The notes beneath the pieces are model-generated. The model saw only the letters and a program-made list of their open reading frames with translations, was not told the origin of the DNA and did not search any database. DNA of 64,000 nt from Escherichia coli (GTDB lineage: Bacteria; Pseudomonadota; Gammaproteobacteria; Enterobacterales; Enterobacteriaceae), in assembly GCF_003334255.1 (NCBI RefSeq), contig NZ_QOWU01000001.1. One strand, 5' to 3'. The translations under genes were made by a program, and so were the position numbers. Shown piece by piece: positions 383 through 45,475 of the stretch. The stretch's first letter is position 1; the number at the start of each line of letters is the position of its first letter.

Positions 383-464
383 CCCTGAATTTCAGGATTT
401 TTCTCTTCAACCGAACCGGCTGTTTGTGTGAAGTGATTCACATCCGCCGTGTCGATGGAGGCGC

Positions 465-520: not shown

Positions 521-532
521 CTCATCTTTTAA

Positions 533-1108: not shown

Positions 1109-1197
1109 CTTTTATAGCTCCTTAATAAGGCATGTGACGCTAGTATCGCATGTTTCGACCTGCAAGAAAGTGCTCTTCGCATAAACCTGATTGATTT

Positions 1198-1229
1198 AGA
1201 CGTCTGGATGCCTTAACATCCATTTCATT
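1198..1229 (+). promoter_or_regulatory. Tandem MetJ boxes in the metN promoter
   Basis: AGACGTCT followed by GGATGCCT, TAACATCC and ATTTCATT: one perfect and three degenerate 8-bp met boxes upstream of metN. Confidence 0.5.
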
Positions 1230-1295
1230 GACGGCGTTGCCCGTTTCAGGCATTCGAGATGCCACGACTAACTTAATGACGATAATAAATAATCA

Positions 1296-2327: not shown

Positions 2328-2973
2328 GCCGATGATGTGGCTGCTGGTTCGTGGCGTATGGGAAACGCTGGCAATGACCTTCGTATCCGGTTTTTTTGGC
2401 TTTGTGATTGGTCTGCCGGTTGGCGTTCTGCTTTATGTCACGCGTCCGGGGCAAATTATTGCTAACGCGAAGCTGTATCGTACCGTTTCTGCGATTGTGA
2501 ACATTTTCCGTTCCATCCCGTTCATTATCTTGCTTGTATGGATGATTCCGTTTACCCGCGTTATTGTCGGTACATCGATTGGTTTGCAGGCAGCGATTGT
2601 TCCGTTAACCGTTGGTGCAGCACCGTTTATTGCCCGTATGGTCGAGAACGCTCTGCTGGAGATCCCAACCGGGTTAATTGAAGCTTCCCGCGCAATGGGT
2701 GCCACGCCGATGCAGATCGTCCGTAAGGTGCTGTTACCGGAAGCGCTGCCGGGTCTGGTGAATGCGGCAACTATCACCCTGATTACCCTGGTCGGTTATT
2801 CCGCGATGGGTGGTGCAGTCGGTGCCGGTGGTTTAGGTCAGATTGGCTATCAGTATGGCTACATCGGCTATAACGCGACGGTGATGAATACGGTACTGGT
2901 ATTGCTGGTCATTCTGGTTTATTTAATTCAGTTCGCAGGCGACCGCATCGTCCGGGCTGTCACTCGCAAGTAA
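2320..2973 (+). CDS. metI: Methionine ABC transporter permease
   Basis: 217-aa hydrophobic ORF immediately downstream of and overlapping metN. Confidence 0.95.
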
Positions 2974-3012
2974 CGTTCAACACAACATAAATAATTGAAG
3001 AAGGAATAAGGT

Positions 3013-3828
3013 ATGGCGTTCAAATTCAAAACCTTTGCGGCAGTGGGAGCCCTGATCGGATCACTGGCACTGGTAGGCTGCGGTCAGGATGAAAAAGATC
3101 CAAACCACATTAAAGTCGGCGTGATTGTTGGTGCCGAACAGCAGGTTGCAGAAGTCGCGCAGAAAGTTGCGAAAGACAAATATGGCCTGGACGTTGAGCT
3201 GGTAACCTTCAACGACTATGTTCTGCCAAACGAAGCATTGAGCAAAGGCGATATCGACGCCAACGCCTTCCAGCATAAACCGTACCTTGATCAGCAACTG
3301 AAAGATCGTGGCTACAAACTGGTCGCAGTAGGCAACACTTTTGTTTATCCGATTGCTGGTTACTCCAAGAAAATCAAATCACTGGATGAACTGCAGGATG
3401 GTTCGCAGGTTGCCGTGCCAAACGACCCAACTAACCTTGGTCGTTCACTGCTGCTGCTGCAAAAAGTGGGCTTGATCAAACTGAAAGATGGCGTTGGCCT
3501 GCTGCCGACCGTTCTTGATGTTGTTGAGAACCCCAAAAATCTGAAAATTGTTGAACTGGAAGCACCGCAACTGCCGCGTTCTCTGGACGACGCGCAAATC
3601 GCTCTGGCAGTTATCAATACCACCTATGCCAGCCAGATTGGCCTGACTCCGGCGAAAGACGGTATCTTTGTTGAAGATAAAGAGTCCCCGTACGTAAACC
3701 TGATCGTGACGCGTGAAGATAACAAAGACGCCGAGAACGTGAAGAAATTCGTCCAGGCTTATCAGTCTGACGAAGTTTACGAAGCAGCAAACAAAGTGTT
3801 TAACGGCGGAGCTGTTAAAGGCTGGTAA
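3013..3828 (+). CDS. metQ: Methionine-binding lipoprotein
   Basis: 271-aa ORF with a lipoprotein signal (LALVGC). Third gene of the metNIQ operon. Confidence 0.95.
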   Translation: MAFKFKTFAAVGALIGSLALVGCGQDEKDPNHIKVGVIVGAEQQVAEVAQKVAKDKYGLDVELVTFNDYVLPNEALSKGDIDANAFQHKPYLDQQLKDRGYKLVAVGNTFVYPIAGYSKKIKSLDELQDGSQVAVPNDPTNLGRSLLLLQKVGLIKLKDGVGLLPTVLDVVENPKNLKIVELEAPQLPRSLDDAQIALAVINTTYASQIGLTPAKDGIFVEDKESPYVNLIVTREDNKDAENVKKFVQAYQSDEVYEAANKVFNGGAVKGW

Positions 3829-3865
3829 TTTTTAGGCTGTTTCCACAATTTGTAATATCATTCAG

Positions 3866-3895
3866 GACGGGCGCTTGCCCGTCTTGTCATTTTTA
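3866..3895 (+). terminator. Intrinsic terminator after metQ
   Basis: GACGGGCgcttGCCCGTC hairpin followed by a T-rich tract (ttgtcattttt). Confidence 0.6.
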
Positions 3896-3945
3896 CAAGC
3901 TCCTGATTCAATATTGACGTTTTGATCATACATTGAGGAAATACT

Positions 3946-4350
3946 ATGCGTGCTTTACCGATCTGTTTAGTAGCACTCATGCTAAGCGGCTGTTCCATGT
4001 TAAGCAGATCCCCTGTCGAACCCGTTCAAAGCACTGCACCCCAGCCGAAAGCGGAGCCTGCAAAACCGAAAGCGCCGCGCGCCACGCCGGTCCGAATTTA
4101 TACCAATGCAGAAGAATTAGTCGGCAAACCGTTCCGCGATCTCGGTGAAGTCAGTGGCGACTCTTGCCAGGCCTCTAATCAGGACTCTCCGCCGAGCATT
4201 CCAACCGCACGTAAGCGGATGCAAATCAACGCCTCTAAAATGAAAGCCAATGCTGTATTACTGCATAGCTGCGAAGTCACCAGCGGTACGCCAGGCTGCT
4301 ATCGTCAGGCTGTATGTATCGGTTCTGCGCTTAACATTACGGCGAAATGA
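3946..4350 (+). CDS. rcsF: Outer-membrane lipoprotein sensor of the Rcs phosphorelay
   Basis: 134-aa ORF with lipobox LMLSGCS and a Pro/Lys-rich linker. Recognised as RcsF. Confidence 0.93.
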   Translation: MRALPICLVALMLSGCSMLSRSPVEPVQSTAPQPKAEPAKPKAPRATPVRIYTNAEELVGKPFRDLGEVSGDSCQASNQDSPPSIPTARKRMQINASKMKANAVLLHSCEVTSGTPGCYRQAVCIGSALNITAK

Positions 4351-5054
4351 GCAGTTTCCAGTTCGAGCAAATAGGCGTTATTCGCTCGCCCTATAAAGAA
4401 AAGTTCGCCGTTCCGCGCCAGCCAGGTCTGGTAAAAAGCGCCAACGGCGAACTGCATCTCATTGCTCCCTACAACCAGGCCGACGCCGTTCGCGGCCTGG
4501 AAGCGTTCAGCCATTTATGGATCCTTTTCGTCTTTCATCAAACGATGGAAGGCGGCTGGCGTCCGACTGTGCGTCCACCGCGCCTCGGCGGTAACGCCAG
4601 AATGGGGGTTTTCGCAACACGCTCTACTTTCCGCCCTAACCCAATTGGCATGTCGCTGGTAGAGCTGAAAGAGGTTGTTTGCCATAAAGACAGCGTGATT
4701 CTGAAGCTCGGCAGTCTGGATCTGGTCGATGGTACGCCGGTAGTGGATATCAAACCGTATCTCCCCTTTGCCGAATCGCTTCCCGATGCCAGTGCCAGCT
4801 ATGCGCAAAGTGCGCCAGCTGCAGAGATGGCGGTGAGTTTTACCGCAGAGGTCGAAAAGCAGCTTTTGACGCTGGAGAAGCGTTATCCGCAGTTAACGCT
4901 GTTTATCCGCGAAGTACTGGCGCAGGACCCGCGCCCGGCCTATCGTAAAGGTGAGGAAACGGGCAAAACCTATGCCGTCTGGCTACATGATTTTAACGTT
5001 CGCTGGCGCGTCACCGACGCAGGTTTTGAAGTCTTTGCGCTGGAACCGCGTTAA
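4347..5054 (+). CDS. tsaA: tRNA (adenine37-N6)-methyltransferase TsaA/YaeB
   Basis: 235-aa ORF. Start overlaps the rcsF stop (ATGA). Confidence 0.9.
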   Translation: MSSFQFEQIGVIRSPYKEKFAVPRQPGLVKSANGELHLIAPYNQADAVRGLEAFSHLWILFVFHQTMEGGWRPTVRPPRLGGNARMGVFATRSTFRPNPIGMSLVELKEVVCHKDSVILKLGSLDLVDGTPVVDIKPYLPFAESLPDASASYAQSAPAAEMAVSFTAEVEKQLLTLEKRYPQLTLFIREVLAQDPRPAYRKGEETGKTYAVWLHDFNVRWRVTDAGFEVFALEPR

Positions 5055-5165
5055 ATTCACGCCCTTCTCTTTTGACATTTCTTTTGCACTGGTAAACTAA
5101 ATCACTTTTTTTTGTCCCAGGCTCGCCTTGAGCCTGTTCTACCTTCCAACTGGAACCGTAACAAC

Positions 5166-6884
5166 ATGCGTACTAGCCAATACCTGCTCTCCACTCTCAA
5201 GGAGACACCTGCCGACGCCGAGGTGATCAGCCATCAGCTGATGCTGCGCGCCGGGATGATCCGCAAGCTGGCCTCCGGGTTATATACCTGGCTGCCGACC
5301 GGCGTGCGCGTTCTGAAAAAAGTCGAAAACATCGTGCGTGAAGAGATGAACAACTCCGGTGCGATCGAGGTGTCGATGCCGGTGGTTCAGCCAGCCGATT
5401 TGTGGCAAGAGAGTGGTCGTTGGGAACAGTACGGTCCGGAACTGCTGCGTTTTGTTGACCGTGGCGAGCGTCCGTTCGTACTCGGCCCAACTCATGAAGA
5501 AGTTATCACTGACCTGATTCGTAACGAGCTTAGCTCTTACAAACAGCTGCCGCTGAACTTCTATCAGATCCAGACCAAGTTCCGCGACGAAGTGCGTCCG
5601 CGTTTCGGCGTCATGCGTTCCCGCGAATTCCTGATGAAAGATGCTTACTCTTTCCATACTTCTCAGGAATCCCTGCAGGAAACCTACGATGCAATGTATG
5701 CGGCCTACAGCAAAATCTTCAGCCGCATGGGGCTGGATTTCCGCGCCGTACAAGCCGACACCGGTTCTATCGGCGGCAGCGCCTCTCACGAATTCCAGGT
5801 GCTGGCGCAGAGCGGTGAAGACGATGTGGTCTTCTCCGACACCTCTGACTATGCAGCGAACATTGAACTGGCAGAAGCTATCGCGCCGAAAGAACCGCGC
5901 GCTGCTGCTACCCAGGAAATGACGCTGGTTGATACGCCGAACGCGAAAACCATCGCGGAACTGGTTGAACAGTTCAATCTGCCGATTGAGAAAACGGTTA
6001 AGACTCTGCTGGTTAAAGCGGTTGAAGGCAGCAGCTTCCCGCTGGTTGCGCTGCTGGTGCGCGGTGATCACGAGCTGAACGAAGTTAAAGCAGAAAAACT
6101 GCCGCAGGTTGCAAGCCCGCTGACTTTCGCGACCGAAGAAGAAATTCGTGCCGTGGTTAAAGCCGGTCCGGGTTCACTGGGTCCGGTAAACATGCCGATT
6201 CCGGTGGTGATTGACCGTACCGTTGCGGCGATGAGTGATTTCGCTGCTGGTGCTAACATCGATGGTAAACACTACTTCGGCATCAACTGGGATCGCGATG
6301 TCGCTACCCCGGAAGTTGCAGATATCCGTAACGTGGTGGCTGGCGATCCAAGCCCGGATGGCCAGGGTACGCTGCTGATCAAACGTGGTATCGAAGTTGG
6401 TCACATCTTCCAGCTGGGTACCAAGTACTCCGAAGCACTGAAAGCCTCCGTACAGGGTGAAGATGGCCGTAACCAAATCCTGACGATGGGTTGCTACGGT
6501 ATCGGGGTAACGCGTGTGGTAGCTGCGGCGATTGAGCAGAACTACGACGAACGAGGCATCGTATGGCCTGACGCTATCGCGCCGTTCCAGGTGGCGATTC
6601 TGCCGATGAACATGCACAAATCCTTCCGCGTACAAGAGCTTGCTGAGAAACTGTACAGCGAACTGCGTGCACAAGGTATCGAAGTGCTGCTGGATGACCG
6701 CAAAGAGCGTCCGGGCGTGATGTTTGCTGATATGGAACTGATCGGTATTCCGCACACTATTGTGCTGGGCGACCGTAACCTCGACAACGACGATATCGAA
6801 TATAAATATCGTCGCAACGGCGAGAAACAGTTAATTAAGACTGGTGACATCGTCGAATATCTGGTGAAACAGATTAAAGGCTGA
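5166..6884 (+). CDS. proS: Prolyl-tRNA synthetase
   Basis: 572-aa product starting [13 protein letters not shown]. The track ORF begins 18 codons earlier in frame at an alternative start. Confidence 0.95.
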
Positions 6885-6890
6885 TGCCAG

Positions 6891-6921
6891 AAAGGGTCCT
6901 GAATTTCAGGGCCCTTTTTTT
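6891..6921 (+). terminator. Intrinsic terminator after proS
   Basis: AGGGTCCTGAatttCAGGGCCCT hairpin followed by seven T residues. Confidence 0.75.
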
Positions 6922-6937
6922 ACATGGATTGTATAAA

Positions 6938-7762
6938 ATGGATAAACCAAAGGCGTACTGCCGCCTGTTTCTCCCCAGCTTTCTTTTACTTTCGGCTTGT
7001 ACCGTTGATATCAGCCAGCCAGACCCATCAGCCACAGCAGTAGATGCCGAGGCAAAAACATGGGCTGTCAAATTCCAGCATCAAAGCTCTTTCACCGAAC
7101 AATCAATAAAAGAAATAACGGCACCTGATCTCAAACCCGGCGATTTGCTGTTCTCCTCAAGCCTTGGGGTAACCTCATTTGGAATCCGCGTCTTCAGCAC
7201 TTCCTCTGTGAGTCACGTTGCAATCTTTCTGGGTGATAATAACGTTGCAGAAGCGACAGGCGCTGGCGTCCAGATCGTTTCCCTTAAAAAAGCGATGAAG
7301 CATAGTGATAAGCTTTTCGTCTTACGAGTCCCGGATCTTACCCCGCAACAAGCCACAGATATCACCGCGTTTGCCAATAAAATCAAAGATAGCGGTTATA
7401 ACTATCGCGGCATTGTCGAATTTATTCCCTTTATGGTGACTCGCCAGATGTGCTCACTGAATCCGTTCTCCGAGGATTTTCGCCAACAGTGCGTCAGCGG
7501 CCTGGCGAAAGCGCAGTTAAGCAGTGTGGGCGAAGGAGACAAAAAGTCGTGGTTTTGTTCGGAATTTGTCACGGATGCCTTTGCCAAAGCCGGGCATCCA
7601 CTTACACTGGCGCAATCGGGCTGGATTAGCCCTGCCGATCTGATGCATATGCGTATTGGTGATGTCTCTGCGTTTAAGCCAGAAACGCAGTTACAGTATG
7701 TTGGGCACCTGAAGCCTGGGATTTATATCAAGGCGGGTCGCTTTGTTGGTTTGACCCGGTGA
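6938..7762 (+). CDS. yaeF: Putative NlpC/P60-type lipoprotein
   Basis: 274-aa product starting MDKPKAYCRLF with lipobox LLSAC. The track ORF extends 18 codons upstream. Confidence 0.85.
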   Translation: MDKPKAYCRLFLPSFLLLSACTVDISQPDPSATAVDAEAKTWAVKFQHQSSFTEQSIKEITAPDLKPGDLLFSSSLGVTSFGIRVFSTSSVSHVAIFLGDNNVAEATGAGVQIVSLKKAMKHSDKLFVLRVPDLTPQQATDITAFANKIKDSGYNYRGIVEFIPFMVTRQMCSLNPFSEDFRQQCVSGLAKAQLSSVGEGDKKSWFCSEFVTDAFAKAGHPLTLAQSGWISPADLMHMRIGDVSAFKPETQLQYVGHLKPGIYIKAGRFVGLTR

Positions 7763-7770
7763 TAAAGTAA

Positions 7771-7886
<116 letters not shown>

Positions 7887-7961
7887 AAAAAACGTGCAAA
7901 TTCAAAATGTTGAAATATATCCTTCTGGCCTGTTTTGCGTTTGTTTCTGTCTCAAGACGGG

Positions 7962-8672
7962 TTACTGCCCCAAACTACTGCAATCCTGGTTGGGGTAAAA
8001 TTTCCCTGCCGTATCGGGTGCCAATACTTTAGTCGGCGCACCGGTATCCGGATTACCCTCAAGCGTAAAGTGACCTTCTACTGACAGTAACACCGGTTTT
8101 TCACTGTGACCGCGCGCAGCCAGGTAGCTACGCTCCAGCTCTGCGTTATTCGCTACCATGAAACGTTTTCCGGTCGCGCAATCAGTGAAGGTCGCCGCAT
8201 CAGCCATATAAAAATACATGCCCCGCAGGGTCATCGGCGTCATAGGTAAACTGGATTGTGCCGCTTCCAGCGTATAGTTGAACTGCGATTCAATCGGATT
8301 GCCTTCACGATCGAGCATCTCCAGCGCATCGCCTTTCGCCCGATAATATGACTTTTCACCTTTGCTGTCGGTTAATACCAGCTTGTCAGCGGTTCGCGCC
8401 CATGTACCGTAGGAAGCGAAGGAGGAAGGTTCTTCACGAGCACCGAGATAACGCTCATTCATCACCCATGTTCCGTCTTTTTCGAGGAACAGAGAGGTTT
8501 CGATTCCTTCGCAATCGGCACACGGCAGCACGCCGCGCCAACTTTGCGGCATCGGTTTCAGTTCGGCAGCCTGCGCCGGAGAAAGCGTATCGACTTCGGC
8601 CCGATTATTACATCCCATCAGAGTAAAGAGGCTGATTACAGCCATCGCTGTCACTATCGCTTTTTTCACCAT
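7962..8672 (-). CDS. nlpE: Outer-membrane lipoprotein NlpE (Cpx pathway activator)
   Basis: 236-aa ORF with lipobox LMGC and a CxxC motif. Recognised as NlpE/CutF. Confidence 0.93.
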   Translation of the reverse strand: MVKKAIVTAMAVISLFTLMGCNNRAEVDTLSPAQAAELKPMPQSWRGVLPCADCEGIETSLFLEKDGTWVMNERYLGAREEPSSFASYGTWARTADKLVLTDSKGEKSYYRAKGDALEMLDREGNPIESQFNYTLEAAQSSLPMTPMTLRGMYFYMADAATFTDCATGKRFMVANNAELERSYLAARGHSEKPVLLSVEGHFTLEGNPDTGAPTKVLAPDTAGKFYPNQDCSSLGQ

Positions 8673-8685
8673 CCATTCCTTCTTT

Positions 8686-9108
8686 TTATTCCCGACCGCT
8701 GCGCACTTTGCCGCGCATCGCCTTCACGCTTGATTTTTGTGCTTTCGATGCCAGCCTGCGCTCTTTCGATGCACGGGTGGGCCGCGTGGGTCGTCGGGCT
8801 TTTTTTTCTGTTGTTAATTCTTTAATCATAGCCACCAGCCGGGCCAGAGCTGCTTCGCGGTTCAGTTCCTGACTGCGGTATTCCTGTGCCTTAATGACAA
8901 TCACGCCATCACTGCTGATCAAATGATGGCTGGCGGCGAGCAGACGCTCTTTGTAATACTCTGGCAGGCTGGACGCCCGAATGTCAAAACGCAGATGAAT
9001 AGCCGTTGAGGTCTTATTAACATGCTGCCCGCCCGCGCCCTGCGCACGAATGGCGGTGATCTCAAGCTCACCATCGGGAATAGCAACATGTCGGGAAATC
9101 ACAATCAT
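8686..9108 (-). CDS. arfB: Peptidyl-tRNA hydrolase ArfB (alternative ribosome rescue factor B)
   Basis: 140-aa ORF with GGQ motif ([10 protein letters not shown]) and a basic C-terminal tail. Confidence 0.93.
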
Positions 9109-9650
9109 GAAGGTTGTTGCCAGGCGGTTAAGTTCACTTCCAGATTATTCTTATCATCCGATAACCAGATCACGCCATCCTGAATCGTTGCCTGCAGCGT
9201 CATGGTACGATCGGCAAAGGCGCTTACTTTCGCCAGTTGTTCATCGTCCAGATACCAGACGGAAAGATTGGCAAACTGCACACATTTGCTCTGATTTTGC
9301 TGCCACCAGATTTGCGCCGCCCGACTATTATAGGTAAACAGCGCCACTTCTGCGGCCTGGGTGCAGGCTTTCTTAATCCGCCGCTCATCCGGCAGCCCCA
9401 GCTCAATCCACAAATCAATGCCCAGGTGATCGTTACGCAGCCACGCTTCCGGCTCATCATCGGCACACAAACCACGGGTAAATTGCAGACGTTCATCAGC
9501 ATATTTCAGCCACGCCAGCAAGCGCAGCATCATACGCTCCTGGGTTTCTGAAGGATGGCGCGCCAGCGTCAGAGAGGCATCGAGAAACTGGTTGCGGTCG
9601 AGATCGGCCACATTAACCGTCGCTTTATAAATTGTCGCTTTAAGCGCCAT
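9105..9650 (-). CDS. yaeQ: YaeQ family protein
   Basis: 181-aa ORF. Stop overlaps the arfB start by 4 nt. Confidence 0.9.
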
Positions 9651-9815
9651 AAGAAAACTCCTTTCGAATCAGGAGGCCATTGTAACGGAATACGTGCAGT
9701 TGCGGCGCTGATATTGCAGAAATGAGTGTGGTATAGTCACCTTGCGAAACAGAGTTTATCTTCGTAGGCTTAGACTTGCATCCACGGTTAAGTCAGAGTG
9801 CTGACAGGAGGGCAT

Positions 9816-10016
9816 GTGGAAAAATATTGTGAGTTAATACGCAAGCGGTACGCGGAAATCGCCAGCGGAGACTTAGGATACGTTCCGGACGCGCTGGGCT
9901 GCGTTTTGAAAGTGCTGAATGAAATGGCTGCCGACGACGCCCTTTCTGAGGCTGTCAGGGAAAAAGCAGCATACGCTGCGGCAAACTTACTGGTGAGCGA
10001 TTATGTCAATGAATGA
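9816..10016 (+). CDS. yaeP: Small protein YaeP (UPF0253)
   Basis: 66-aa product from a GTG start ([12 protein letters not shown]...) with a GGAGGG Shine-Dalgarno sequence just upstream. The track ORF starts 6 codons earlier. Confidence 0.8.
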
Positions 10017-10263
10017 TACGTATCAACCAATCAATTGTGATGATTACGATAATCTTGAGCTCGCCTGCCAGCATCATTTAATGCTGACACTTGAGCTGAA
10101 AGATGGCGAAAAATTGCAGGCAAAAGCCAGTGATTTAGTCTCCCGCAAAAATGTGGAGTACCTGGTCGTCGAGGCCGCTGGCGAAACCCGCGAGCTGCGT
10201 CTGGATAAAATTACCAGCTTTAGCCACCCGGAAATCGGTACGGTGGTGGTAAGCGAATCCTGA
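10009..10263 (+). CDS. rof: Rho-binding antiterminator Rof
   Basis: 84-aa product [20 protein letters not shown].... Overlaps the yaeP 3' end by 8 nt. Confidence 0.9.
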
Positions 10264-10272
10264 TTGACTTTC

Positions 10273-10305
10273 GCCGGATGCGACGTTTGATGCGTCTTAT
10301 CCGGC
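10273..10305. repeat. Single REP unit between convergent rof and tilS
   Basis: GCCGGATGCGACGtttgatgCGTCTTATCCGGC, REP-type imperfect palindrome. Confidence 0.7.
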
Positions 10306-10311
10306 TTTCAC

Positions 10312-11610
10312 TTAACTAAGCGTTTTCTGCCAGACAAAACTTACGCCATTCTCACCTTCAGCCACACCTTCTTGCGTCACAAATACCCCTGCCGCCGCAA
10401 TCAGCGTTTCGCCATAAAACAGCAGTGGCGTGGTGTCACGTAGCCACGGCGGCACGCCCAGCTCTTGCCAGATTTTCTTTAGCTTACGTCCGCCGTTACG
10501 CCCGACAATATGCAGCAATCCTGGCGCTTTGAAACGCACGCTGACCGCTTCGTCTGCACGCGGAGGGCGAATATCGCCTCCCGCATTAAGCTGTACACTT
10601 CCCAGCCCCGCCGGTAATTCCAGCGGTTGAAGCCACGTCTGCCACGGCACAATGTTTTCGCTTTGCCCGGTGACGGATTTAATCCACCACAGTTGCGACT
10701 GATAGCGTCGGATTTCAAACGCGCCCAAACGTAAACAGGGTGAGGCATCTTCCCGCGCCAGCGCCACTTCCTGCCAGATCCTCACCAACGCGTCGCGGGA
10801 AGGCATCGGTGCATTCTGCCCTGCCAGCCAGCGGCGGATAATCGCCGCGCGGCGGGCATCACTCATCGCCAGCATTGGCACAATCTGCAGCGTCCCCTGC
10901 GGCGATTGACAGTGTGCTAAATCATCTGCCAGCAGTTCATCCAGCAGGCTCTCTTGTTCAGCACAAAGTGCGGCGCTGCGGGCCGTTGCTTCGGCAAAAT
11001 GCGGCCAACGCTGCTGCAATAACGGCACTACGCGCAGGCGCAGAAAGTTACGATCGTATGAGTCGTCCTGATTACTTTCGTCTTCAATCCAGCGTAAATC
11101 ATACTGACGCGCCCACTGCACCAGTTCCCCCCGCGTGCGGGCGAGCAACGGGCGAATAAGCCGCGTTCCGGCAAACTCCGAGACTTCCGCCATAGCCGAA
11201 AGCCCGGCAGGGCCACTGCCGCGTTTTAGCGCCAGCAGAAAGGTTTCACATTGATCGTCGAGATGTTGCGCGGTGACCAGCACTTCACCGGGCAACAAGG
11301 TGCGGGCAAATGCCTGATAACGTGCCTGCCGCGCCTGGGCCTCAATGCCCAGTCCTTCTTGCGCAAGTTGTACGCGTTCGACCACCAGCGGCACCTGCCA
11401 CTGTTGGCAGACGTTTTCGCAATGCGTAACCCAGGCATCGGCATTGGCACTTAAACCGTGATGCACATGAATAGCGCGCAGAGCGACACCCGGATTTTCC
11501 GTCCGCCACTGCACCAACTGATGCAGCAGAACGGTGGAGTCAAGCCCGCCGCTAAAGGCCACCAGAATCTGGCGTGAGGTGAGAAGTTGTCTATTGAGCG
11601 TGAGTGTCAT
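10312..11610 (-). CDS. tilS: tRNA(Ile)-lysidine synthetase
   Basis: 432-aa ORF with PP-loop motif SGGLDS near the N-terminus. Confidence 0.95.
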
Positions 11611-11674
11611 GATGGTGCGATTTTACAGTAGCAATGCCCGGCACGTTACCGGGCAAATGCGGCGATGACAAGCC

Positions 11675-12064
11675 TTACTGCTCATACAGTTCCAACGGCA
11701 GCCCGTCCGGATCGTTAAAGAAGGTGAAGCGTTTTTGCGTGTATGGATCGACACGGATGGTTTCACACTTCACGTTATGGCTTTCAAGGTGCGCCACTGC
11801 CGCATCGATGTCATCAACGCTAAAAGCCAGATGACGCAGACCGCAAGCTTCCGGTCGGCTGGGTCGTTCCGGCGGGAACGGAAATGAGAAAAGCTCAATC
11901 ACATATTGCCCATTAAGCGCCAAATCCCCTTTCCATGAGTCGCGCGCTTCGCGATAGACTTCGCTTTGCAGCGTGAAACCAAGAATATCGCAGTAGAAAG
12001 CTTTGCTCACCGCATAATCCGTCGCAATAATCGCAATATGGTGAACCTGTTTTAAACCCAGCAT
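11675..12064 (-). CDS. yaeR: VOC/glyoxalase-family protein
   Basis: 129-aa product starting MLGLKQVHHIAI. The track ORF extends 9 codons upstream. Confidence 0.85.
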   Translation of the reverse strand: MLGLKQVHHIAIIATDYAVSKAFYCDILGFTLQSEVYREARDSWKGDLALNGQYVIELFSFPFPPERPSRPEACGLRHLAFSVDDIDAAVAHLESHNVKCETIRVDPYTQKRFTFFNDPDGLPLELYEQ

Positions 12065-12120
12065 AACGTCTCCTTTATTTGTTAACAGCACGTTACTCGC
12101 CCGGAAGCCGCTCTGGCAAG

Positions 12121-14262
12121 TTATCCCGCCATTTTTAGGACTCGTACGCGGTAAACGCCGTCTTCGTCCTGTTTCGCGCCGTGAATATCCGTTTCAAAAC
12201 CGGGGTAATGTTGCCCGACGGAACAAAGCATCAGTAGAAAATCGAGTACTGTGCGGCTCTCTTTGGTCAGCATTTCTCCAGGCATCAACAGCGGTACGCC
12301 CGGTGGATAAGGCAGGATCATATTTGCCGATACTCTACCGACCAGTTGTTCCAGCGCAATGGTTTCTACTTCGCCTTTAATTTGTCGTTGCCATGCCTGA
12401 TGTGGCGTCATGATCATCTCCGGCAAAGTATCGAATGCCCGCAACATCAAACCGGGAAGATCGTGTTTACGAATCAGCTTATGGATCCCTTGTGCCAGAT
12501 CCTGAATACGCACATTGCGGTAGAAATCGGGATCTTCTGCATAGAGATCGGGTAGCATATTTTTGATCCGCAGGTTGAGATCGTAAGAGCGTTTGAATTC
12601 CGTCAACCCACGCAATAATCCCATTGCTTTGGTTTTATCGATGCCAATACTAAAGAGAAACAGCAGGTTATAAGGGCCGGTTTTCTCTACTACGATCCCA
12701 CGTTCGTCGAGGAATTTTGCTACCAGCGCCGCCGGGATCCCCTCCTCGCTCATATTGCCCTGCTCGTCCATCCCCGGTGTCAAAATAGTGACTTTAACCG
12801 GATCGAGAAACATATGATCGGCATCCGCATCGTTAAAGCCGTGCCACTGTTCGCCAGGCGCAACGGGCCAGCATTCGGCTTCATCCACCTGCGGCGGTTG
12901 CCAGATATCGAAAAACCAACCGTCAGACTCTTCCCGCAGCCGCTGGACCTCTTTGCGAAAATGCAGAGCTCGTTCTACTGAACGGTTAATCAGCCGTTTG
13001 CCCGGATTACCACGCAGCATCGCCGCCGCCGTCTCAACCGAAGCAACAATGGGATAACTGGGCGAGGTGGTGGTATGCATCATAAAGGCTTCGTTAAAGG
13101 CCTCTTCGTCATACTCGCCTTTAATGTGGATCAGCGAAGCCTGCGATAACGCCGCCAGCATTTTGTGGGTCGATTGCGTTTCGAAGATCACTTTTCCCGC
13201 AACACGCTCGCCGCTCATACCACTTTTACCCTGGTAGATCGGATGAAAATGGGTGTACGGCACCCAGGCAGAATCGAAGTGAATCGACGGGACATCCAGC
13301 GTCTGTTTGATCCAGTCGGTGTTGTAGAGCAAGCCATCATAGGTGGAGTTGGTGATCACCGCATGAACCGGCCATTGTGCTTGCGTGGTAGCAGCGACTT
13401 TCTCTTCGATGCTGTCGCGAGTAAATTCACGGCGCGGGATCCCACCAAGAATCCCCAACGCATTACGCGTCGGTTTCAGCCAGACTGGCACTACATCGTT
13501 CATCATCAACAGATGCGCCAGCGATTTATGACAATTGCGGTCGATCAACAGCGTACTGCCGGATGGCGCGGCGTACATACCCACAATTTTGTTCGACGTC
13601 GATGTTCCGTTGGTAACGATATAACTCTGTTCCGCGCCAAAAGTCCGCGCGATGTACTCTTCCGCTTCCAGGTGTGGCCCGGTGTGGTCGAGCAACGAAC
13701 CAAGCTCGGTGACCGAAATAGAGACATCAGCCTTAAGAGTATTCCCGCCGAAAAAATCATAAAACAGACAGCCAACCGGGCTTTTTTGATATGCGGTGCC
13801 GCCCATATGCCCCGGCGTACAAAAGGTGTACTTCCGCTCTTTGACGTAGGTAAACAAGGCTTTCGTGAACGGCGGTGTAATGTTATCAAGATATTCGTCG
13901 GTGTACTGACGCATACGAATGGCGATATCTTCCGCCTGCCCCAGCGCATATTCAAAAAACCAGAGCGCCATCCGCATATCCTGCACGCTGACATCCATCG
14001 TCGAGTGGGTGTTGATGAAGGCATAAAGCGGGAGATATTCATTAAGCTGATTGATATCGCTACATAAATCGAGACTGTACTCATCCCAGTCAAAAATCAC
14101 GCCGCAAATTCGAGGGTTATGTTCGATAAATTTCAGCAAATCAACGCTGTTTTGTGGCCAGATAATCTGAAAGCCTTGCGCCACCAGCGCCGACTCCAGT
14201 TCTTTGATGGGCTCATCTTTATAAAAGACGCCATGCGGTCCCATAATGGCAATGATGTTCAT
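12121..14262 (-). CDS. ldcC: Lysine decarboxylase, constitutive
   Basis: 713-aa ORF with a fold-III PLP decarboxylase lysine region (SxHK). Recognised as LdcC. Confidence 0.93.
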   Translation of the reverse strand: MNIIAIMGPHGVFYKDEPIKELESALVAQGFQIIWPQNSVDLLKFIEHNPRICGVIFDWDEYSLDLCSDINQLNEYLPLYAFINTHSTMDVSVQDMRMALWFFEYALGQAEDIAIRMRQYTDEYLDNITPPFTKALFTYVKERKYTFCTPGHMGGTAYQKSPVGCLFYDFFGGNTLKADVSISVTELGSLLDHTGPHLEAEEYIARTFGAEQSYIVTNGTSTSNKIVGMYAAPSGSTLLIDRNCHKSLAHLLMMNDVVPVWLKPTRNALGILGGIPRREFTRDSIEEKVAATTQAQWPVHAVITNSTYDGLLYNTDWIKQTLDVPSIHFDSAWVPYTHFHPIYQGKSGMSGERVAGKVIFETQSTHKMLAALSQASLIHIKGEYDEEAFNEAFMMHTTTSPSYPIVASVETAAAMLRGNPGKRLINRSVERALHFRKEVQRLREESDGWFFDIWQPPQVDEAECWPVAPGEQWHGFNDADADHMFLDPVKVTILTPGMDEQGNMSEEGIPAALVAKFLDERGIVVEKTGPYNLLFLFSIGIDKTKAMGLLRGLTEFKRSYDLNLRIKNMLPDLYAEDPDFYRNVRIQDLAQGIHKLIRKHDLPGLMLRAFDTLPEMIMTPHQAWQRQIKGEVETIALEQLVGRVSANMILPYPPGVPLLMPGEMLTKESRTVLDFLLMLCSVGQHYPGFETDIHGAKQDEDGVYRVRVLKMAG

Positions 14263-14313
14263 GTGTTCCTCCTGGAAAATCCTTCCTTAATCATAGCCTG
14301 CTCAAACCGTGGC

Positions 14314-14346
14314 GATAAAAAAGGGCCACCGAAGTGACCCTTTTTC
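14314..14346 (-). terminator. Hairpin with flanking A/T runs after accA
   Basis: Plus strand reads aaaaaaGGGCCACcgaaGTGACCCttttt: a stem flanked by an A run and a T run, so it could terminate in either direction. Confidence 0.55.
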
Positions 14347-14360
14347 AGAACTTTTGCGAA

Positions 14361-15320
14361 TTACGCGTAACCGTAGCTCATCAGGCGCTGATAACGACGA
14401 TTTTTTAAATCTTCAGTGCTTAACACGTCGAGATCGGCCAGATCCGCCAGCAGTTGCGCTTTCAACGATGCCGCCATCGCTTCCGGGTTACGGTGAGCAC
14501 CACCCAGTGGTTCCGGGATGATGGAGTCGATCAGTTTCAGTTCTTTCAGACGCGGAGCAATGATACCCATCGCTTCAGCCGCCAGCGGCGCTTTGTCGGC
14601 GCTCTTCCACAGAATGGACGCACAACCTTCCGGCGAGATAACGGAATAGGTGCTGTATTGCAGCATATTCACTTTATCGCCCACGCCAATCGCCAGCGCA
14701 CCGCCAGAACCACCTTCACCGATAACCGTACAAACTACCGGTACGCCGAGGCGAGACATTTCACGCAGGTTGCGTGCAATGGCTTCAGACTGACCACGCT
14801 CTTCTGCGCCCACGCCAGGATAAGCCCCCGGGGTGTCGATAAAGGTGATGATAGGCATCTTAAAGCGTTCAGCCATTTGCATCAGACGCAGTGCTTTGCG
14901 GTAACCTTCTGGCGCTGGCATACCAAAGTTACGGCGAATTTTTTCTTTGGTTTCACGACCTTTTTGATGACCAATGATCATCACCGGACGACCATCGAGA
15001 CGGGCGATACCACCGACGATAGCTTTATCGTCTGCATACGCGCGGTCGCCAGCCAGTTCGTCAAATTCATCAAATGCCAGGCGAACGTAATCCAGGGTAT
15101 AAGGACGCTGTGGATGGCGTGCCAGTTGCGCAATCTGCCATGCACCGAGATCGGCGAAGATTTTACGTGTCAGTTCTACGCTTTTTTCACGCAGACGATG
15201 CACTTCTTCATCGATGTTAATATCCAGTTTCTCATCCTGACGGCTAACCGCAGTCAGAGAATCGATTTTCGCTTCCAGCTCTGCAATCGGCTGTTCAAAA
15301 TCAAGGAAATTCAGACTCAT
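14361..15320 (-). CDS. accA: Acetyl-CoA carboxylase carboxyltransferase alpha subunit
   Basis: 319-aa ORF starting [20 protein letters not shown]. Confidence 0.96.
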
Positions 15321-15332
15321 AGTATTCCTGTA

Positions 15333-18300
15333 TTAGTCAAACTCCAGTTCCACCTGCTCCGAACCAATGAGGCCACGGAGATCGTTTAATAAACGATCGC
15401 TCGGAGAGACACGCCACGTCGCGCCAAAACGCAACCGCGCGCGTGCATCCGCCCTCTGATAGTAGAGATGTACTGGAATTGTCCCAGAGCGGTGGGGTTC
15501 CAGAGACTGACGGAGTCGGTTTAAAAGCTGGTCATCAATTTGCCTGTCCGTCAGCGAGATAGCAAGCCCGCGAGCATATTTTTCCCGGGCTTCGTCAATA
15601 TCCATCACTTCGCGAGCGGTCATTTTAAGCCCACCGCTGAAGTCATCAAAGCTGACCTGTCCGCTGACGATAAGTATGCGGTCTTTTTCCAGCAATTGCT
15701 GGTATTTATCCAGGGCGTCAGTAAACAACATCACTTCCAGCCGCCCGGAACGGTCATCCAGCGTGCAGATACCGATACGATTGCCGCGCTTGGTGACCAT
15801 AACCCGCGCGGCAACAACGAGCCCCGCAGCCGTGATGACTTTACCACGTTCTGTCGGGTGCATGTCTTTCAGCCTTACGCCTCCGACATAACGCTCAATC
15901 TCTTTTAAATACTGGTTGATAGGGTGTCCGGTCAGGTACAGGCCTAACGTTTCACGTTCCCCATCTAATACCACCTGCTCCGGCCACGGTTGGCAGCTGG
16001 CGTAGGATTGTTCAATTTGTTCCGGCTCTTCGGCCAGCACGCCGAACATATCGGCCTGACCGATAGCTTCCGCTTTCGCGTGTTGATCTGCCGCTTTTAA
16101 CGCATCGCCCAGCGAGTTCATCAGCGCTGCGCGATGTGGCCCAAGACGGTCAAACGCCCCGGACATGATCAGTTTTTCCAGCACGCGACGGTTCAACTTT
16201 TTGGTGTCGGTACGGGCGCAGAGATCAAACAGTTCGCGGAAGTAGCCGCCTTTATTACGGGCTTCGATGATGGCCTCAATCGGACCTTCACCGACCCCTT
16301 TGATCGCGCCAATACCATACACGATTTCGCCGTCGTCGTTGACGTGGAAATGGTAAAGACCGGAGTTTATATCTGGTGGCAGGATTTTCAGCCCCATCCG
16401 CCAGCACTCATCCACCAGACCCACCACCTTCTCGGTGTTGTCCATATCGGCGGTCATTACCGCCGCCATAAACTCCGCAGGATAGTGCGCTTTCAGCCAT
16501 AACGTTTGATATGACACCAAAGCATAGGCCGCAGAGTGCGATTTGTTAAATCCGTAACCAGCGAATTTCTCCACCAGGTCGAAGATTTTCATCGCCAGTT
16601 CAGCGTTGATTCCGTTCTTTTCTGCACCTTCAGCAAATACAGAACGTTGCTTAGCCATCTCTTCCGGCTTTTTCTTACCCATCGCACGACGCAGCATATC
16701 CGCGCCACCGAGGGTATAACCAGAAAGCACCTGCGCAATCTGCATGACCTGTTCCTGATACAGGATAATGCCGTAGGTTGGCTCCAGTACCGGTTTCAGG
16801 CTTTCATGCTGCCACTGTACGTCCGGATAGGAGATCTCTTCACGACCATGTTTACGGTCGATAAAGTTATCCACCATCCCTGATTGCAACGGACCGGGGC
16901 GGAACAGTGCCACTAGGGCGATCATATCTTCGAAGCAGTCAGGTTGTAGACGCTTGATCAGGTCCTTCATGCCGCGCGATTCAAGCTGGAATACCGCCGT
17001 GGTTTCCGAGCGTTGCAGCATGTCGAAGCTTTTCTTATCATCCAGCGGGATCGCAGCGATATCCAGCGGCGGCTCGCCATTCTTCGCCCGCCGCTTGTTG
17101 ATCATCTCCAGCGCCCAGTTGATGATGGTGAGCGTACGCAAACCAAGGAAGTCGAACTTCACCAGTCCGGCGTATTCAACGTCGCTTTTATCAAACTGGG
17201 TGACCGGATGTTTGCCCTCTTCATCGCAGTAAAGCGGCGCAAAATCGGTAATTTTGGTCGGCGCGATAACCACCCCACCGGCGTGCTTACCGGCGTTACG
17301 GGTGACCCCTTCCAGTTTGCGCGCCATGTCGATCAGCGCCTTAACTTCTTCATCCGCTTCGTAGATTTCCGGCAGCTGCGGCTCGGCTTCAAACGCTTTC
17401 GCCAGCGTCATCCCCGGATCGGGCGGGATCAGTTTCGAGATACGATCGACAAAGCCGTACGGATGCCCCAGCACGCGGCCTACGTCGCGGATCACCGCTT
17501 TCGCCGCCATTGTACCGAAGGTGATGATCTGCGATACCGCATCACGACCGTACATGTCCGCTACGTGCTCGATAACCTGATCGCGTTTCTCCATACAGAA
17601 GTCAACGTCGAAGTCAGGCATGGAGACACGTTCCGGGTTAAGGAAACGTTCGAACAGCAGGTCAAATTCCAGCGGATCGAGGTCGGTGATTTTCAGCGCG
17701 TAGGCCACCAGTGAACCCGCACCGGAGCCACGGCCTGGCCCTACCGGTACGCCGTTATCTTTCGACCACTGGATAAATTCCATAACGATGAGGAAGTAGC
17801 CCGGGAAGCCCATCTGGTTGATAACCTGAAGTTCAGTCTCCAGACGTTCGTCATATTCCGGGCGGCGCTTAAGACGTTCTTCCTCATCAGGGAATAAAAA
17901 GGCCAGACGCTCTTCCAGGCCCTCTTTTGCACGCTTGACCAGATAATCTTCGGTGCTCATGTCCCCGGTCGGGAACTGCGGCAGGAAGTATTCACCAAGA
18001 CGCACGGTTACGTTACAGCGTTTGGCGATCTCAACGGTGTTGGCAAGGGCTTCGGGGATGTCGGCAAACAGCTCACACATCTCCTCTTCGCTACGCATAT
18101 ATTGCTGCGGCGAATAGTTACGCGGGCGTTTAGGATCGTCGAGGGTAAAGCCGTCGTGGATCGCGACGCGGATTTCGTGTGCGTCAAAGTCGCTGCTGTC
18201 GATAAAGCGCACGTCGTTGGTCGCCACGACGGGCAAACCGCGCGCTTCCGCCAGTTCCACCGCCGCGTGCAGATAGCTTTCTTCATCCGGCCTGCCGGTG

Positions 18301-18815
18301 CGGATCAGCTCGAGAAAATAGCGATCCGGGAAGTGTTCTTCATAAAACGCGACACACTCATCTACCAGCGCGCTGTTACCACGCAAAAGACTGCGTCCGA
18401 CGTCGCCCATGCGTCCGCCGGAAAGAAGGATCAACCCTTCGTTTAATTCGATAAGCCAGTCGCGATCGATGATCGGCCCGGCGGCACCGTACCCGCGCTG
18501 ATACGCTTTTGAGATCAGCAACGTCAGATTCTGATAGCCGGTATTGTTCGCCGCCAGTACCGTCAGGTGGGTTAACTCATCACCCAGCAGGTCGCACTGG
18601 ACGTTAAAATCTGCCCCGACGATAGGCTTAATCCCTGCGCCATGTCCCGCTCCGTAGAACTTCACCAGACCACAAAGGTTGGTGAAATCGGTGATCGCCA
18701 GTGCTGGCATACCCAACGCCGCCGCCTTTTTTACCAACGGTGCGGTTTTGGCCAGGCCATCGATCATCGAGTAGTCGCTGTGCACCCGCAGGTGTACGAA
18801 ACGTGGTTCAGACAT
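15333..18815 (-). CDS. dnaE: DNA polymerase III alpha subunit
   Basis: 1160-aa ORF with an N-terminal PHP domain ([12 protein letters not shown]). Confidence 0.97.
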
Positions 18816-18851
18816 CTTCAGATTCCGGTTTACTTAATCTCGACACAAGAA

Positions 18852-19448
18852 TCAGGACGCAAGTCCCAGTGCGCGTTTGACAGGCCCAAAGCTGCGCCGA
18901 TGGTGTTCGGTCGCGCCGTGTTCAGCCAGTTTTTCCAGATGAAAAGCGGTTGGGTACCCTTTGTGTTGGGCAAAACCATATTGCGGGAAAACAATATCCA
19001 GCGCCGCCATTTCGGCGTCACGCGTCACTTTCGCCAGGATAGACGCGGCACTGATTTCCGGTACGCGGCTATCGCCTTTCACCACAGCCATCGCAGGCAT
19101 CGGTAATTTCGGGCAGCGGTTACCATCAATCAACACATATTCCGGCGCAATATGCAGCCCAGCGACGGCACGCTGCATCGCCAGCATGGTCGCATGAAGA
19201 ATGTTCAGCTCGTCGATTTCGTGGGGTTCCGCGCGGCCCAGACTCCAGCTCAACGCTTTCTCTTTGATCTCTTCATAGAGCGCCAGACGGCGTTTTTCGC
19301 TCAGCTTTTTGGAATCATTCAGCCCGGCAATCGGGCGCGCCGGGTCAAGGATCACCGCAGCGGTGACGACCGCGCCAACTAACGGCCCGCGTCCGACTTC
19401 ATCCACACCCGCAACCAGCTGCGTGTGCGGATAAACAAATTCGATCAT
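18852..19448 (-). CDS. rnhB: Ribonuclease HII
   Basis: 198-aa ORF with catalytic motif [10 protein letters not shown]. Confidence 0.95.
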
Positions 19449-41631: not shown

Positions 41632-43056
41632 TTACTGCATTAACAGGTAGATGGTGCTGTCGCCGCGCTGAATGTTGAGTGCCAGCACAGACGGTTTGCT
41701 GTCGAGAACTTTACGCAGTTCAGCGATGTTTTTCACTGCCTGCTGGTTCGCGCCAATAATCACATCACCTTTCTTCAGGCCGATCTGCGCAGCCGGAGTG
41801 CCCGTTTTCACGTTGTTCACTACCACGCCCTGATCTTTGCCTTTGTTGCTCATCTCAGCGCCTTCAATGCCGTTGAAGATGGAGCTGGAATCAACCTGAT
41901 TCTGGCTGCTCTGCTGCAGTTCCAGGTTCACGTTAACCTGCTTACCGTCGCGCAGTAAGCCCAGGGTCAGTTTGCTGCCTACCGGCATAGTACCCACCTG
42001 AGCACGCAGTGCGGCAAAGCTGCTGATCGGCTTACCGTTCAGTGAGGTGATCACATCACCCGCTTTAATGCCCGCTTTTGCAGCGGAGGAATTAGGCAGA
42101 ACCTGGCTTACGAAAGCACCGCGCTGGGCGTCAACTTTCATCGCTTTCGCCAGTTCGGAGTTCAGCTCAGTCCCCATAATACCCAGCTCACCGCGTTTCA
42201 CCTGGCCGTATTCCACCATCTGCGAGGTCAGGTTTTTCACCATGTTACTCGGGATAGCAAAACCGATACCGATGTTGCCGCCGTCCGGTGCGAGGATCGC
42301 GGTGTTGATACCGATCAGTTCGCCGTTCAGGTTAACCAGCGCACCACCGGAGTTACCACGGTTGATCGCTGCATCGGTCTGGATGAAGTTTTCGTAGTTT
42401 TCGGCATTCAGGCCGCTACGCCCCAGCGCAGAGACAATCCCGGAAGTTACCGTCTCGCCCAGACCAAACGGGTTACCAATCGCTACGGTGTAATCACCCA
42501 CGCGCAGTGCATCAGAATCCGCCATCTTAATTGCGGTCAGGTTTTTCGGGTTCTGGATTTGGATCAGCGCGATATCAGAGCGCGGATCTTTGCCAACCAT
42601 CTTCGCGTCGAACTTACGGCCATCGCTCAGTTGAACTTTAATGACCGTCGCGTTATCAACAACGTGGTTGTTGGTGACGACATAGCCTTTATCGGCATCA
42701 ATGATGACGCCGGAACCCAGCGCCATGAATTTCTGTTGCTGGCCGCCACCATTACCGCCCTGGCCACCCTGGCAGAACGGAGAGCTCTGGAACGGAGAAC
42801 CTTCCTGGCAGAACGGAGAATCATCACCGAAGAACTGCTGGAAATTACGCGGCATACGCGGCGTATTAACGGTTGTGCTACCTTCTACGTTAATGCTGAC
42901 CACTGAAGGCATCACCTTTTCGAGCATCGGTGCAAGGCTTGGCATCTGCTGGGCTGTCGTTGCTGAAGAAGTCTCAGCCGCCGTTGCAGAGAGCGGAGAT
43001 AACGCCAAACCTAAACTCAGAGCCAGTGCACTCAGTGCTAATGTGGTTTTTTTCAT
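41632..43056 (-). CDS. degP: Periplasmic serine endoprotease/chaperone DegP (HtrA)
   Basis: 474-aa ORF with a signal peptide, catalytic GNSGGAL motif and two PDZ domains. Confidence 0.96.
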   Translation of the reverse strand: MKKTTLALSALALSLGLALSPLSATAAETSSATTAQQMPSLAPMLEKVMPSVVSINVEGSTTVNTPRMPRNFQQFFGDDSPFCQEGSPFQSSPFCQGGQGGNGGGQQQKFMALGSGVIIDADKGYVVTNNHVVDNATVIKVQLSDGRKFDAKMVGKDPRSDIALIQIQNPKNLTAIKMADSDALRVGDYTVAIGNPFGLGETVTSGIVSALGRSGLNAENYENFIQTDAAINRGNSGGALVNLNGELIGINTAILAPDGGNIGIGFAIPSNMVKNLTSQMVEYGQVKRGELGIMGTELNSELAKAMKVDAQRGAFVSQVLPNSSAAKAGIKAGDVITSLNGKPISSFAALRAQVGTMPVGSKLTLGLLRDGKQVNVNLELQQSSQNQVDSSSIFNGIEGAEMSNKGKDQGVVVNNVKTGTPAAQIGLKKGDVIIGANQQAVKNIAELRKVLDSKPSVLALNIQRGDSTIYLLMQ

Positions 43057-43099
43057 GTATTTCAGTCTCGATTAACAGATAACGCAAAATTGCTGTGTT

Positions 43100-43130
43100 C
43101 TTCAGATTCGTTTTATAGCCTGAAGTTCCG
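43100..43130 (-). promoter_or_regulatory. Sigma-E-type promoter of degP
   Basis: Minus strand reads cGGAACTTcaggctataaaacgaaTCTGAag: -35 GGAACTT, 16-nt spacer, -10 TCTGA, about 45 nt upstream of the degP start. Confidence 0.6.
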
Positions 43131-43185
43131 AACTAAAGTTTCTGCAAAAGGTAAAAATTTATTGTTCGTCTTTACAAAAGCCTGG

Positions 43186-44693
43186 TTATTGTTCTACGGC
43201 CATCAGACGTCGGTATTCATCCCACGCATAGAGGTCGGTCATACCGCTGATATAATCCTGCAGCAGGCGGCAACGGTAATAATATTCCCATAGCGGAAAC
43301 TCAGGAGAATCTGACGGTAATTTACTGACAGCCTCGACATAGGCCAGCCGATGGCGCGTCGAGAGTTTGTGGAATAAGCGCGATTCAATAGGGAAACGTT
43401 TCACCCGTTCTTTTTCTACCAGTTCAGTAAAGTCTGATAACGACAGGCTTAATAAAGGACGATAAATCTCTAATAATCCGCTAATGACCCGATAGCCCTG
43501 CAATTCAAGCTGCTCGACATCTGGATGGCTAAACACATGTTTTACAGCGACATTTTTATATAGCTTAAGAAGATCGCTGCATTCGCTGGCATCTTCCAAT
43601 AATGCATGATTAAACGTTCCGGCGAAAATCGCAGGCAGATTATCAATAAATCGTTGTGCCGCGTAGGGTACCAGTTTATTTAGGGTGTTTACCCGTAAAT
43701 ACATAAAAAACTGATCTTCCGTACTGCGGCTTAAACTATTTGAGCGTGATTTTTCCCAGGCATTTTCAACCACCAGCGAAAAGAGCGAACCTTTCTCATG
43801 CTGGCCCCACGCTTCGTGCAAATGATGATAAAGCTGCTCAACGGTAAATATACCGCATCTTCAAGGTCTGCCACACAATAGGAGATGTCGTCGGCAGCTT
43901 CCATAATCCACGTTAATGGAAAACGACTGTAAAGCGCCAAATTAAGTTCTTTACGCAACCGGGCAATATAGGCTTCTTCAGAAAGATAATAACCCGGCTT
44001 TTTCATTAAATAGTGATGTGTCTCAGGCGTTTCGCCACGCCACCACGCCGGACGGGTATATTTTAAAATACCGCCAACCTGTGCCCAGGTGAGATTCATC
44101 CGCATCAATGTATGCACCAGGCGAATGCCTTGTGCATTCCCCTCAAAATGACATAAGTCCTGACGAATCTTGCGCCGCAGCTCGTTAAGCGGTTCTTCCC
44201 CGTCCCGTAAACGTAGTGCCGCCACGCTGCAGCGATCGTCAGTCAGAGGCTGGCTTTCGGCATCTTCCGGGTGCAAACGTTGGCGAAACCAGTCATTTAT
44301 CGCCGCTTCGCCAAAATGACCAAACGGCGGATTGCCGATATCGTGCATCAGGCATGACATCTCAACAATGCTTTCAAAGGGACCGGTCAGTTCATCCAGG
44401 CCGTATGCTTCCAGTAATTTAAGCTCTTTCAGACGGCTTAAAATTTCTTTGGCGATGTAGCGCCCCACCTGCTGGACTTCCATCGAGTGGGTAAGACGCG
44501 TGCGCACGGCGGCATTGCGCTCCAGTGGAAAAACCTGGGTCTTTTGTTGCAGACGACGAATTGCCGGAGAGTTGATGATACGCCCGCGATCGCTCTCGAA
44601 GATCCGCAGGATCTCATGTTCGGTTTTAACGCCCTGCGGTGAACGGTAACGACGATGCCAGTTTATTTTTTTTCGGAAATCAATCTGTGCCAT
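43186..44693 (-). pseudogene. dgt: dGTP triphosphohydrolase gene, reading frame disrupted by a frameshift
   Basis: The track shows two overlapping ORFs in different frames instead of one 505-codon gene: 43731..44693 (native residues 1-281 plus a 39-aa aberrant tail) and 43186..43821 (native C-terminal part). The span is 1508 nt, against 1518 expected. Confidence 0.8.
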
Positions 44694-44776
44694 GTCCTCT
44701 CCCGCGTGAGAAATACGCTTCCCCGTAAGCGCATGGTAAACTATGCCTTCAAATCGGGCTTATCGCGAGTAAATCT

Positions 44777-45475
44777 ATGAAAATCGGCATCATTGGTGCA
44801 ATGGAAGAAGAAGTTACGCTGCTGCGTGACAAAATCGAAAACCGTCAAACTATCAGTCTCGGCGGTTGCGAAATCTATACCGGCCAACTGAATGGAACCG
44901 AGGTTGCGCTTCTGAAATCGGGCATCGGTAAAGTCGCTGCGGCGCTGGGTGCCACTTTGCTGTTGGAACACTGCAAGCCAGATGTGATTATTAACACCGG
45001 TTCTGCCGGTGGCCTGGCACCAACGTTGAAAGTGGGCGATATCGTTGTCTCGGACGAAGCACGTTATCACGACGCGGATGTCACGGCATTTGGTTATGAA
45101 TACGGTCAGTTACCAGGCTGTCCGGCAGGCTTTAAAGCTGACGATAAACTGATCGCTGCCGCTGAGGCCTGCATTGCCGAACTGAATCTTAACGCTGTAC
45201 GTGGCCTGATTGTTAGCGGCGACGCTTTCATCAACGGTTCTGTTGGTCTGGCGAAAATCCGCCACAACTTCCCACAGGCCATTGCTGTAGAGATGGAAGC
45301 GACGGCAATCGCCCATGTCTGCCACAATTTCAACGTCCCGTTTGTTGTCGTACGCGCCATCTCCGACGTGGCCGATCAACAGTCTCATCTTAGCTTCGAT
45401 GAGTTCCTGGCTGTTGCCGCTAAACAGTCCAGCCTGATGGTTGAGTCACTGGTGCAGAAACTTGCACATGGCTAA
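44777..45475 (+). CDS. mtnN: 5'-methylthioadenosine/S-adenosylhomocysteine nucleosidase
   Basis: 232-aa ORF starting [24 protein letters not shown]. Confidence 0.95.

Follow-up and report, generated by a model that had tools for sequence, protein, structure and literature searches.

The housekeeping gene dgt, which encodes dGTP triphosphohydrolase, is not found as one continuous reading frame in the window, the 64,000-nt stretch of Escherichia coli DNA analysed here. The question is whether this split is a real mutation, how it arose and what it leaves of the enzyme. E. coli-type Dgt converts dGTP to deoxyguanosine and triphosphate. The list of open reading frames for 42800-45200 contains a minus-strand ORF that starts at ATG 44693 and runs to a stop codon ending at 43731. 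It encodes a product of 320 aa, composed of 281 native residues (...CVADLEDAV) and an out-of-frame tail of 39 residues. A second dgt frame is open from 43851 for 221 codons up to a stop at 43186. The gene occupies the orthologous position between mtnN and degP, and the order mtnN-dgt-degP is that of the annotated strains 300709 and G1/2. The elements of the locus are as follows.

43186..44693, minus strand: probable dgt pseudogene (dGTP triphosphohydrolase), 1508 nt against 1518 nt in the intact gene
43851..44693, minus strand: native dgt codons 1-281, carrying H69, H117, D118, D268, Y272 and D276
43851..43852, minus strand: deletion junction; 10 nt, AGAGAAAAGA, absent between the two bases; microhomology of 1 nt (A)
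43731..43850, minus strand: out-of-frame tail of 39 codons (43850-43734) and premature TAA (43733-43731)
43186..43851, minus strand: stranded native frame, codons 285-505 (221 codons and stop), encoding F391, E400, R433 and R442
TTG 43821 (position of M295) and ATG 43704 (M334), minus strand: candidate internal starts in the stranded frame
44777-45475: mtnN (ORF list)
41632-43056: degP (ORF list)

The minus strand of window positions 43150-44750 was searched by megablast against 5,426 complete RefSeq E. coli genomes. The top matches were full-length with an identity of 99.4%, in which 1611 bases of the record were aligned with 1601 bases of the query. One of these matches, strain 300709, has an intact dgt of 505 aa (WP_000057067.1) and was used as the alignment reference. 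All of the 1601 aligned bases were identical (1601/1601), and the sole difference was one 10-nt gap. The gap can be written as AGAGAAAAGA or as GAGAAAAGAA, since both ends share one A and the placement is ambiguous by 1 base. Strain 300709 reads GATGCGGT-AGAGAAAAGA-ATATTTACC and the window reads GATGCGGT-ATATTTACC. The deletion removes the codons of E282, K283 and R284 together with 1 nt, and the sum of 281, 3 and 221 codons restores the 505 of the intact protein. The PDB entries 4X9E, 4XDS, 6OI7 and 7U65 represent the same 505-aa Dgt. The intact E. coli enzyme and the window allele thus share the locus, the 1601 bases and the HD residues, but the intact chain has 505 aa against the 320 aa predicted from the window, which lacks the 10 nt after codon 281. 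The split dgt reflects one discrete lesion, the rest of the gene being identical, and not a chance pattern. A preliminary description of this DNA had reported two overlapping ORFs in different frames, an expected length of 505 aa, a 10-nt deletion after codon 281 and, tentatively, the missing residues E-K-R. The ORF list, the minus-strand sequence and the alignment agree with each of these points.

The window was compared with its closest complete genome, that of E. coli G1/2 (human faeces). Positions 1-18925 showed 3 substitutions and 0 gaps, and positions 18601-64000 showed 7 substitutions and one gap, the dgt deletion. None of the 10 substitutions in 64 kb makes or removes a stop codon in a long frame. 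With one indel and no nonsense change, dgt is the only gene of aberrant length in the window, as had been proposed. The exact 320-aa product, tail included, is present in a public protein collection (CAM2788586.1 and CUJ86495.1; 16 contigs), where it is labelled 'dGTPase [Escherichia coli]', and a contig index returned 23 contigs with the exact product. The carriers represent a minimum of 8 independent runs or assemblies, listed here.

GCA_965136505.1: carrier, NCBI assembly
ERZ19634436: carrier, ENA metagenome assembly
ERR1948968, ERR589767, ERR9882047, SRR29138354, SRR31098083 and SRR31312631: carriers, per-run Logan assemblies

Six of the eight carrier loci that were compared are identical to the window, and loci L002, L003, L004, L011, L014 and L015 match it at 100% over 2.6-21 kb, junction included. 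Except for one locus (L016), which is treated below, the carriers are 0-2 SNPs away from the window over 10-21 kb. It might be supposed that the organism does have the 10 nt and that the gap is an error of the source assembly. The deleted decamer is indeed purine-rich and of low complexity, and the allele is in no complete RefSeq genome. However, at least 8 runs or assemblies, which differ in project and assembler (Logan, a megahit metagenome contig and an NCBI assembly), independently yielded this junction. The intact parent protein is found on at least 1000 contigs; this is therefore a site that assemblers usually get right. The 64 kb hold no second indel against G1/2, so the sequence is not riddled with indel errors, and a loss of 10 nt is atypical for a homopolymer-type read error. 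An assembly error is accordingly regarded as very improbable, and the caveat of a sequence error that accompanied the first description is largely removed. The independent assemblies indicate that the deletion is real and that several samples, sequenced independently of one another, carry it.

The order of events can be read at window position 39779, in the intergenic region of yaeI and yaeH, where the window, L011 and L014 have one allele and L012, L013 and the intact G1/2 have the other. Both L012 and L013 carry the deletion and keep the G1/2 (ancestral) base there, and L012 has one more difference. Therefore, the deletion is older than this substitution and was transmitted by descent. The allele pattern indicates that the substitution at 39779 arose within the deletion-bearing lineage, after the deletion.

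To define how widespread the allele is, a 100-nt query centred on the junction was used. The junction was found in 0 of the 5,422 complete E. coli genomes that gave a match, all of which have the 10 nt, and the best identity among them was 90.9% (100/110). An exact-match scan with a 38-nt junction string gave 0 matches in the GTDB species-representative genomes and 0 matches in the JGI metagenome contigs. A literature search with the accessions of the carrier runs and proteins found no mention of them, and one with dgt and pseudogene found nothing relevant. Judged from the genome and contig searches, this is a rare allele, restricted to a small lineage with no representative among the complete RefSeq genomes.

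One carrier contig departs from this simple picture. L016 (SRR31098083, contig 57) encodes the exact 320-aa product, but 13 sites differ from the window in 7.5 kb, and five of the 13 are synonymous sites inside dgt. A carrier with the deletion on a different SNP background is what would be seen if the identical deletion were recurrent at a hotspot, or had spread by recombination, and did not mark one clone. The positions of two insertions described below, the IS1 of Shigella sonnei 9 nt away and the ISVsa5 of strain E2 at about nt 768, likewise give a hint of a fragile, AT-rich stretch. The 5' part of the L016 dgt most closely resembles that of B1-type strains, for example O39:NM F8704-2. In a three-way alignment, all 13 differences (13/13) were the B1 alleles of F8704-2, interleaved at short range with window alleles. 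This mosaic is as expected of a two-strain chimera, and none of the complete genomes is a closer match to L016 than the window-type haplotype is. L016 is probably a chimera, assembled from a sample in which two E. coli strains were mixed. As decisive evidence of a second origin it is ruled out by this fine-scale mosaic of two haplotypes. In addition, the microhomology at the junction is only 1 nt, which offers no obvious slippage mechanism, and the remaining carriers lie within 0-2 SNPs of the window. Recurrence or horizontal spread is therefore considered unlikely, and a single deletion inherited by one small lineage is the reading retained. Imprecise excision of an IS element was also considered as the origin of the deletion and found to be unsupported, as neither an IS remnant nor a target duplication is present at the junction.

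A split gene can still be functional when the ribosome changes frame or when separate fragments assemble. Ribosomes that slip by -1 at any point of the 39-codon overlap would return to the native frame. Moreover, ATG 43704 sits 27 nt past the premature stop, and a restart there could yield a C-terminal fragment of 172 aa; on other contigs, gene callers do call a downstream fragment of 172 aa or 211 aa. On the other hand, a slippery heptamer of the type X XXY YYZ was sought between codon 281 and the stop and none was found, and homopolymers in this interval do not exceed 5 nt (A5). None of the 5,422 complete E. coli genomes that matched shares the frame interruption. Because the interruption is missing from all of these genomes, it is a lesion rather than a conserved recoding site. 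Programmed -1 frameshifting of the dnaX kind was rejected on the same two grounds, the lack of a slippery heptamer and the lack of conservation. A product restored by a shift would be without E282-R284, and a split product would be without residues 282-333. A functional gene through programmed -1 frameshifting, or through assembly of separate N- and C-terminal fragments, is thus extremely improbable.

The residues known to form the active site allow the consequence for the protein to be described. The Pfam HD domain covers residues 66-146 of the intact Dgt, ahead of the frameshift. Residues 1-281 of the 320-aa product are identical to those of the intact protein, and the HD metal-binding motif (H69, H117, D118 and D268) is present in it. 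The contacts to sugar and phosphate (Q53, V54, N186, K211, Y212, K232, Y272 and D276) are also kept. In contrast, F391, E400, R433 and R442 are all past the frameshift and are encoded only in the stranded frame. According to PMC6511015, F391 stacks on the guanine and E400 reads the purine amine within the same monomer, and R433 and R442 reach into the active site of the neighbouring monomer and read the guanine keto group. The E. coli enzyme is a hexamer of 505-aa chains (PMC9478638). The window thus encodes no continuous chain of about 505 aa with the guanine-recognition residues. With the C-terminal 224 residues gone and 39 unrelated residues added, a functional dGTPase is very unlikely. The 320-aa product very probably has no dGTPase function, and the allele would be a null allele. 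The mapping on the reference numbering bears out the preliminary statement that the HD region is kept and about 220 C-terminal residues are lost.

It is highly probable that a spontaneous 10-bp deletion, inherited since, has made dgt a null pseudogene in a phylogroup-A-like lineage. The proposed course is simple. A spontaneous 10-bp deletion would have occurred in the chromosomal housekeeping dgt of a phylogroup-A-like E. coli lineage, and the reading frame would shift after codon 281. Translation would give 320 aa, that is, the native N-terminal part with the HD domain and 39 junk residues. Without the C-terminal 224 residues, dgt would be a pseudogene in this lineage. The expected state is that of a dgt-null strain, with no dGTPase activity, an approximately 2-fold dGTP level, a modest base-substitution mutator phenotype and no growth defect. 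In PMC9478638 and PMC4014421, deletion of dgt is described to raise dGTP about 2-fold and to act as a base-substitution mutator. Functional equivalence is expected with the laboratory deletion and insertion mutants of dgt (Quirk et al. 1990; Gawel, Hamilton and Schaaper 2008) to which the same two papers refer. Unlike the laboratory mutants, the window allele is natural and comes from wild or commensal samples, and its phenotype is predicted.

The relation of Dgt to bacteriophage T7 needs a correction. Plating of a T7 gene 1.2 mutant had been suggested as a test of the lesion. However, T7 needs gene 1.2 on optA1 hosts only, and these overproduce Dgt (PMC9478638). Therefore, a dgt-null strain would plate the gene 1.2 mutant like the wild type, and the test would not show the lesion. 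The optA1 allele is another variant of dgt, of natural or laboratory origin, and bears on the interaction with T7 gene 1.2. It is a promoter-up variant with up to 50-fold overexpression of Dgt (PMC4014421), and its effect is opposite to that of the window lesion. Upstream of dgt, the window sequence is the same as in wild-type strains, so the window is not an optA1 background. The dGTPase of PMC11728103 (ISME J 2024) belongs to an accessory anti-phage island and is not the housekeeping dgt.

The neighbouring gene degP has a leader of its own.

43051..43096, minus strand: thermometer in the 5' UTR of degP (htrA), Rfam RF02700, 77 bits (gathering score 52)

The dgt stop is consequently not expected to act on degP by polarity. 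The scan of 42950-44900 for promoters and terminators gave counts at chance level, and the Rfam search placed no RNA family over the dgt lesion. At window positions 43847-43874 on the minus strand, the junction creates TATATT 16 nt downstream of GTGGCA. The pair is a weak sigma-70-like match (9/12) facing the stranded 3' part of dgt, and such sites occur at chance level in the region.

Other natural losses of dgt were found among the matches. In S. sonnei (L005, CP032523, and L006, CP044191; approximately 4835-5603), an IS1 element is inserted in dgt after nt 834, codon 278. Its target duplication is the 9-bp GACCTTGAA, the site lies 9 nt upstream of the window deletion, and the tail read through from the IS1 end is GDAANLLI. 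This dgt::IS1 is an independent natural loss in a different lineage, by insertion in contrast to the small deletion of the window. The downstream ORF of 211 aa stranded in S. sonnei has the same amino-acid sequence as that of the window, and the IS1 disruption explains the stranded 211-aa ORF on 684 contigs. Two further independent disruptions are found in complete genomes. In E. coli AR216.2b (L009, 1649-2704), IS903B is located near codon 464 of dgt, and in E. coli E2 (L018, 5817-7144) an ISVsa5 (IS4-family, IS10-like) lies at approximately nt 768. Draft genomes also contain several 'partial' Dgt proteins that end at residues 275-294, a pattern suggestive of contigs broken where IS elements are inserted in this stretch. 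The lesions group around codons 256-285, and this may be coincidence.

The independent IS disruptions in S. sonnei, AR216.2b and E2 indicate that dgt is dispensable and sporadically lost. That dgt is inactivated repeatedly in host-associated Escherichia and Shigella (by the window deletion, IS1, ISVsa5 and IS903B) because its loss is adaptive, rather than by neutral decay, seems improbable. If it were true, the advantage may be a higher dGTP level, a mild mutator phenotype or protection against dGTP starvation under limiting purine salvage, and it would keep the deletion lineage in guts.

Beyond dgt, the window has the following structured RNAs above the Rfam gathering score.

1-170, minus strand: 5' end of 16S rRNA, cut by the window start
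7807-7883, minus strand: naRNA4/CssrE
33147-33256, minus strand: CssrA
34095-34181, minus strand: t44 RNA, upstream of rpsB

All five Rfam matches of the window, including the HtrA thermometer, are expected for this region of E. coli. The four missense differences from G1/2, with the G1/2 residue given first, are A/S in proS (5355), L/S in rseP (26581), C/Y in ispC/dxr (29801) and Q/R in fhuB (51657).

The window dgt is an ordinary lineage-specific pseudogene of a well-characterised non-essential gene, of a kind already known, and it has little weight beyond strain annotation. For annotation, the automated label 'dGTPase' on the truncated 320-aa product would mislead analyses of gene content. 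For biology, a natural dgt-null lineage that has been sampled repeatedly could be used as a ready-made natural experiment on the role of Dgt in the wild. It would cover the control of dNTP pools, the rate and spectrum of mutation, and baseline phage restriction and susceptibility.
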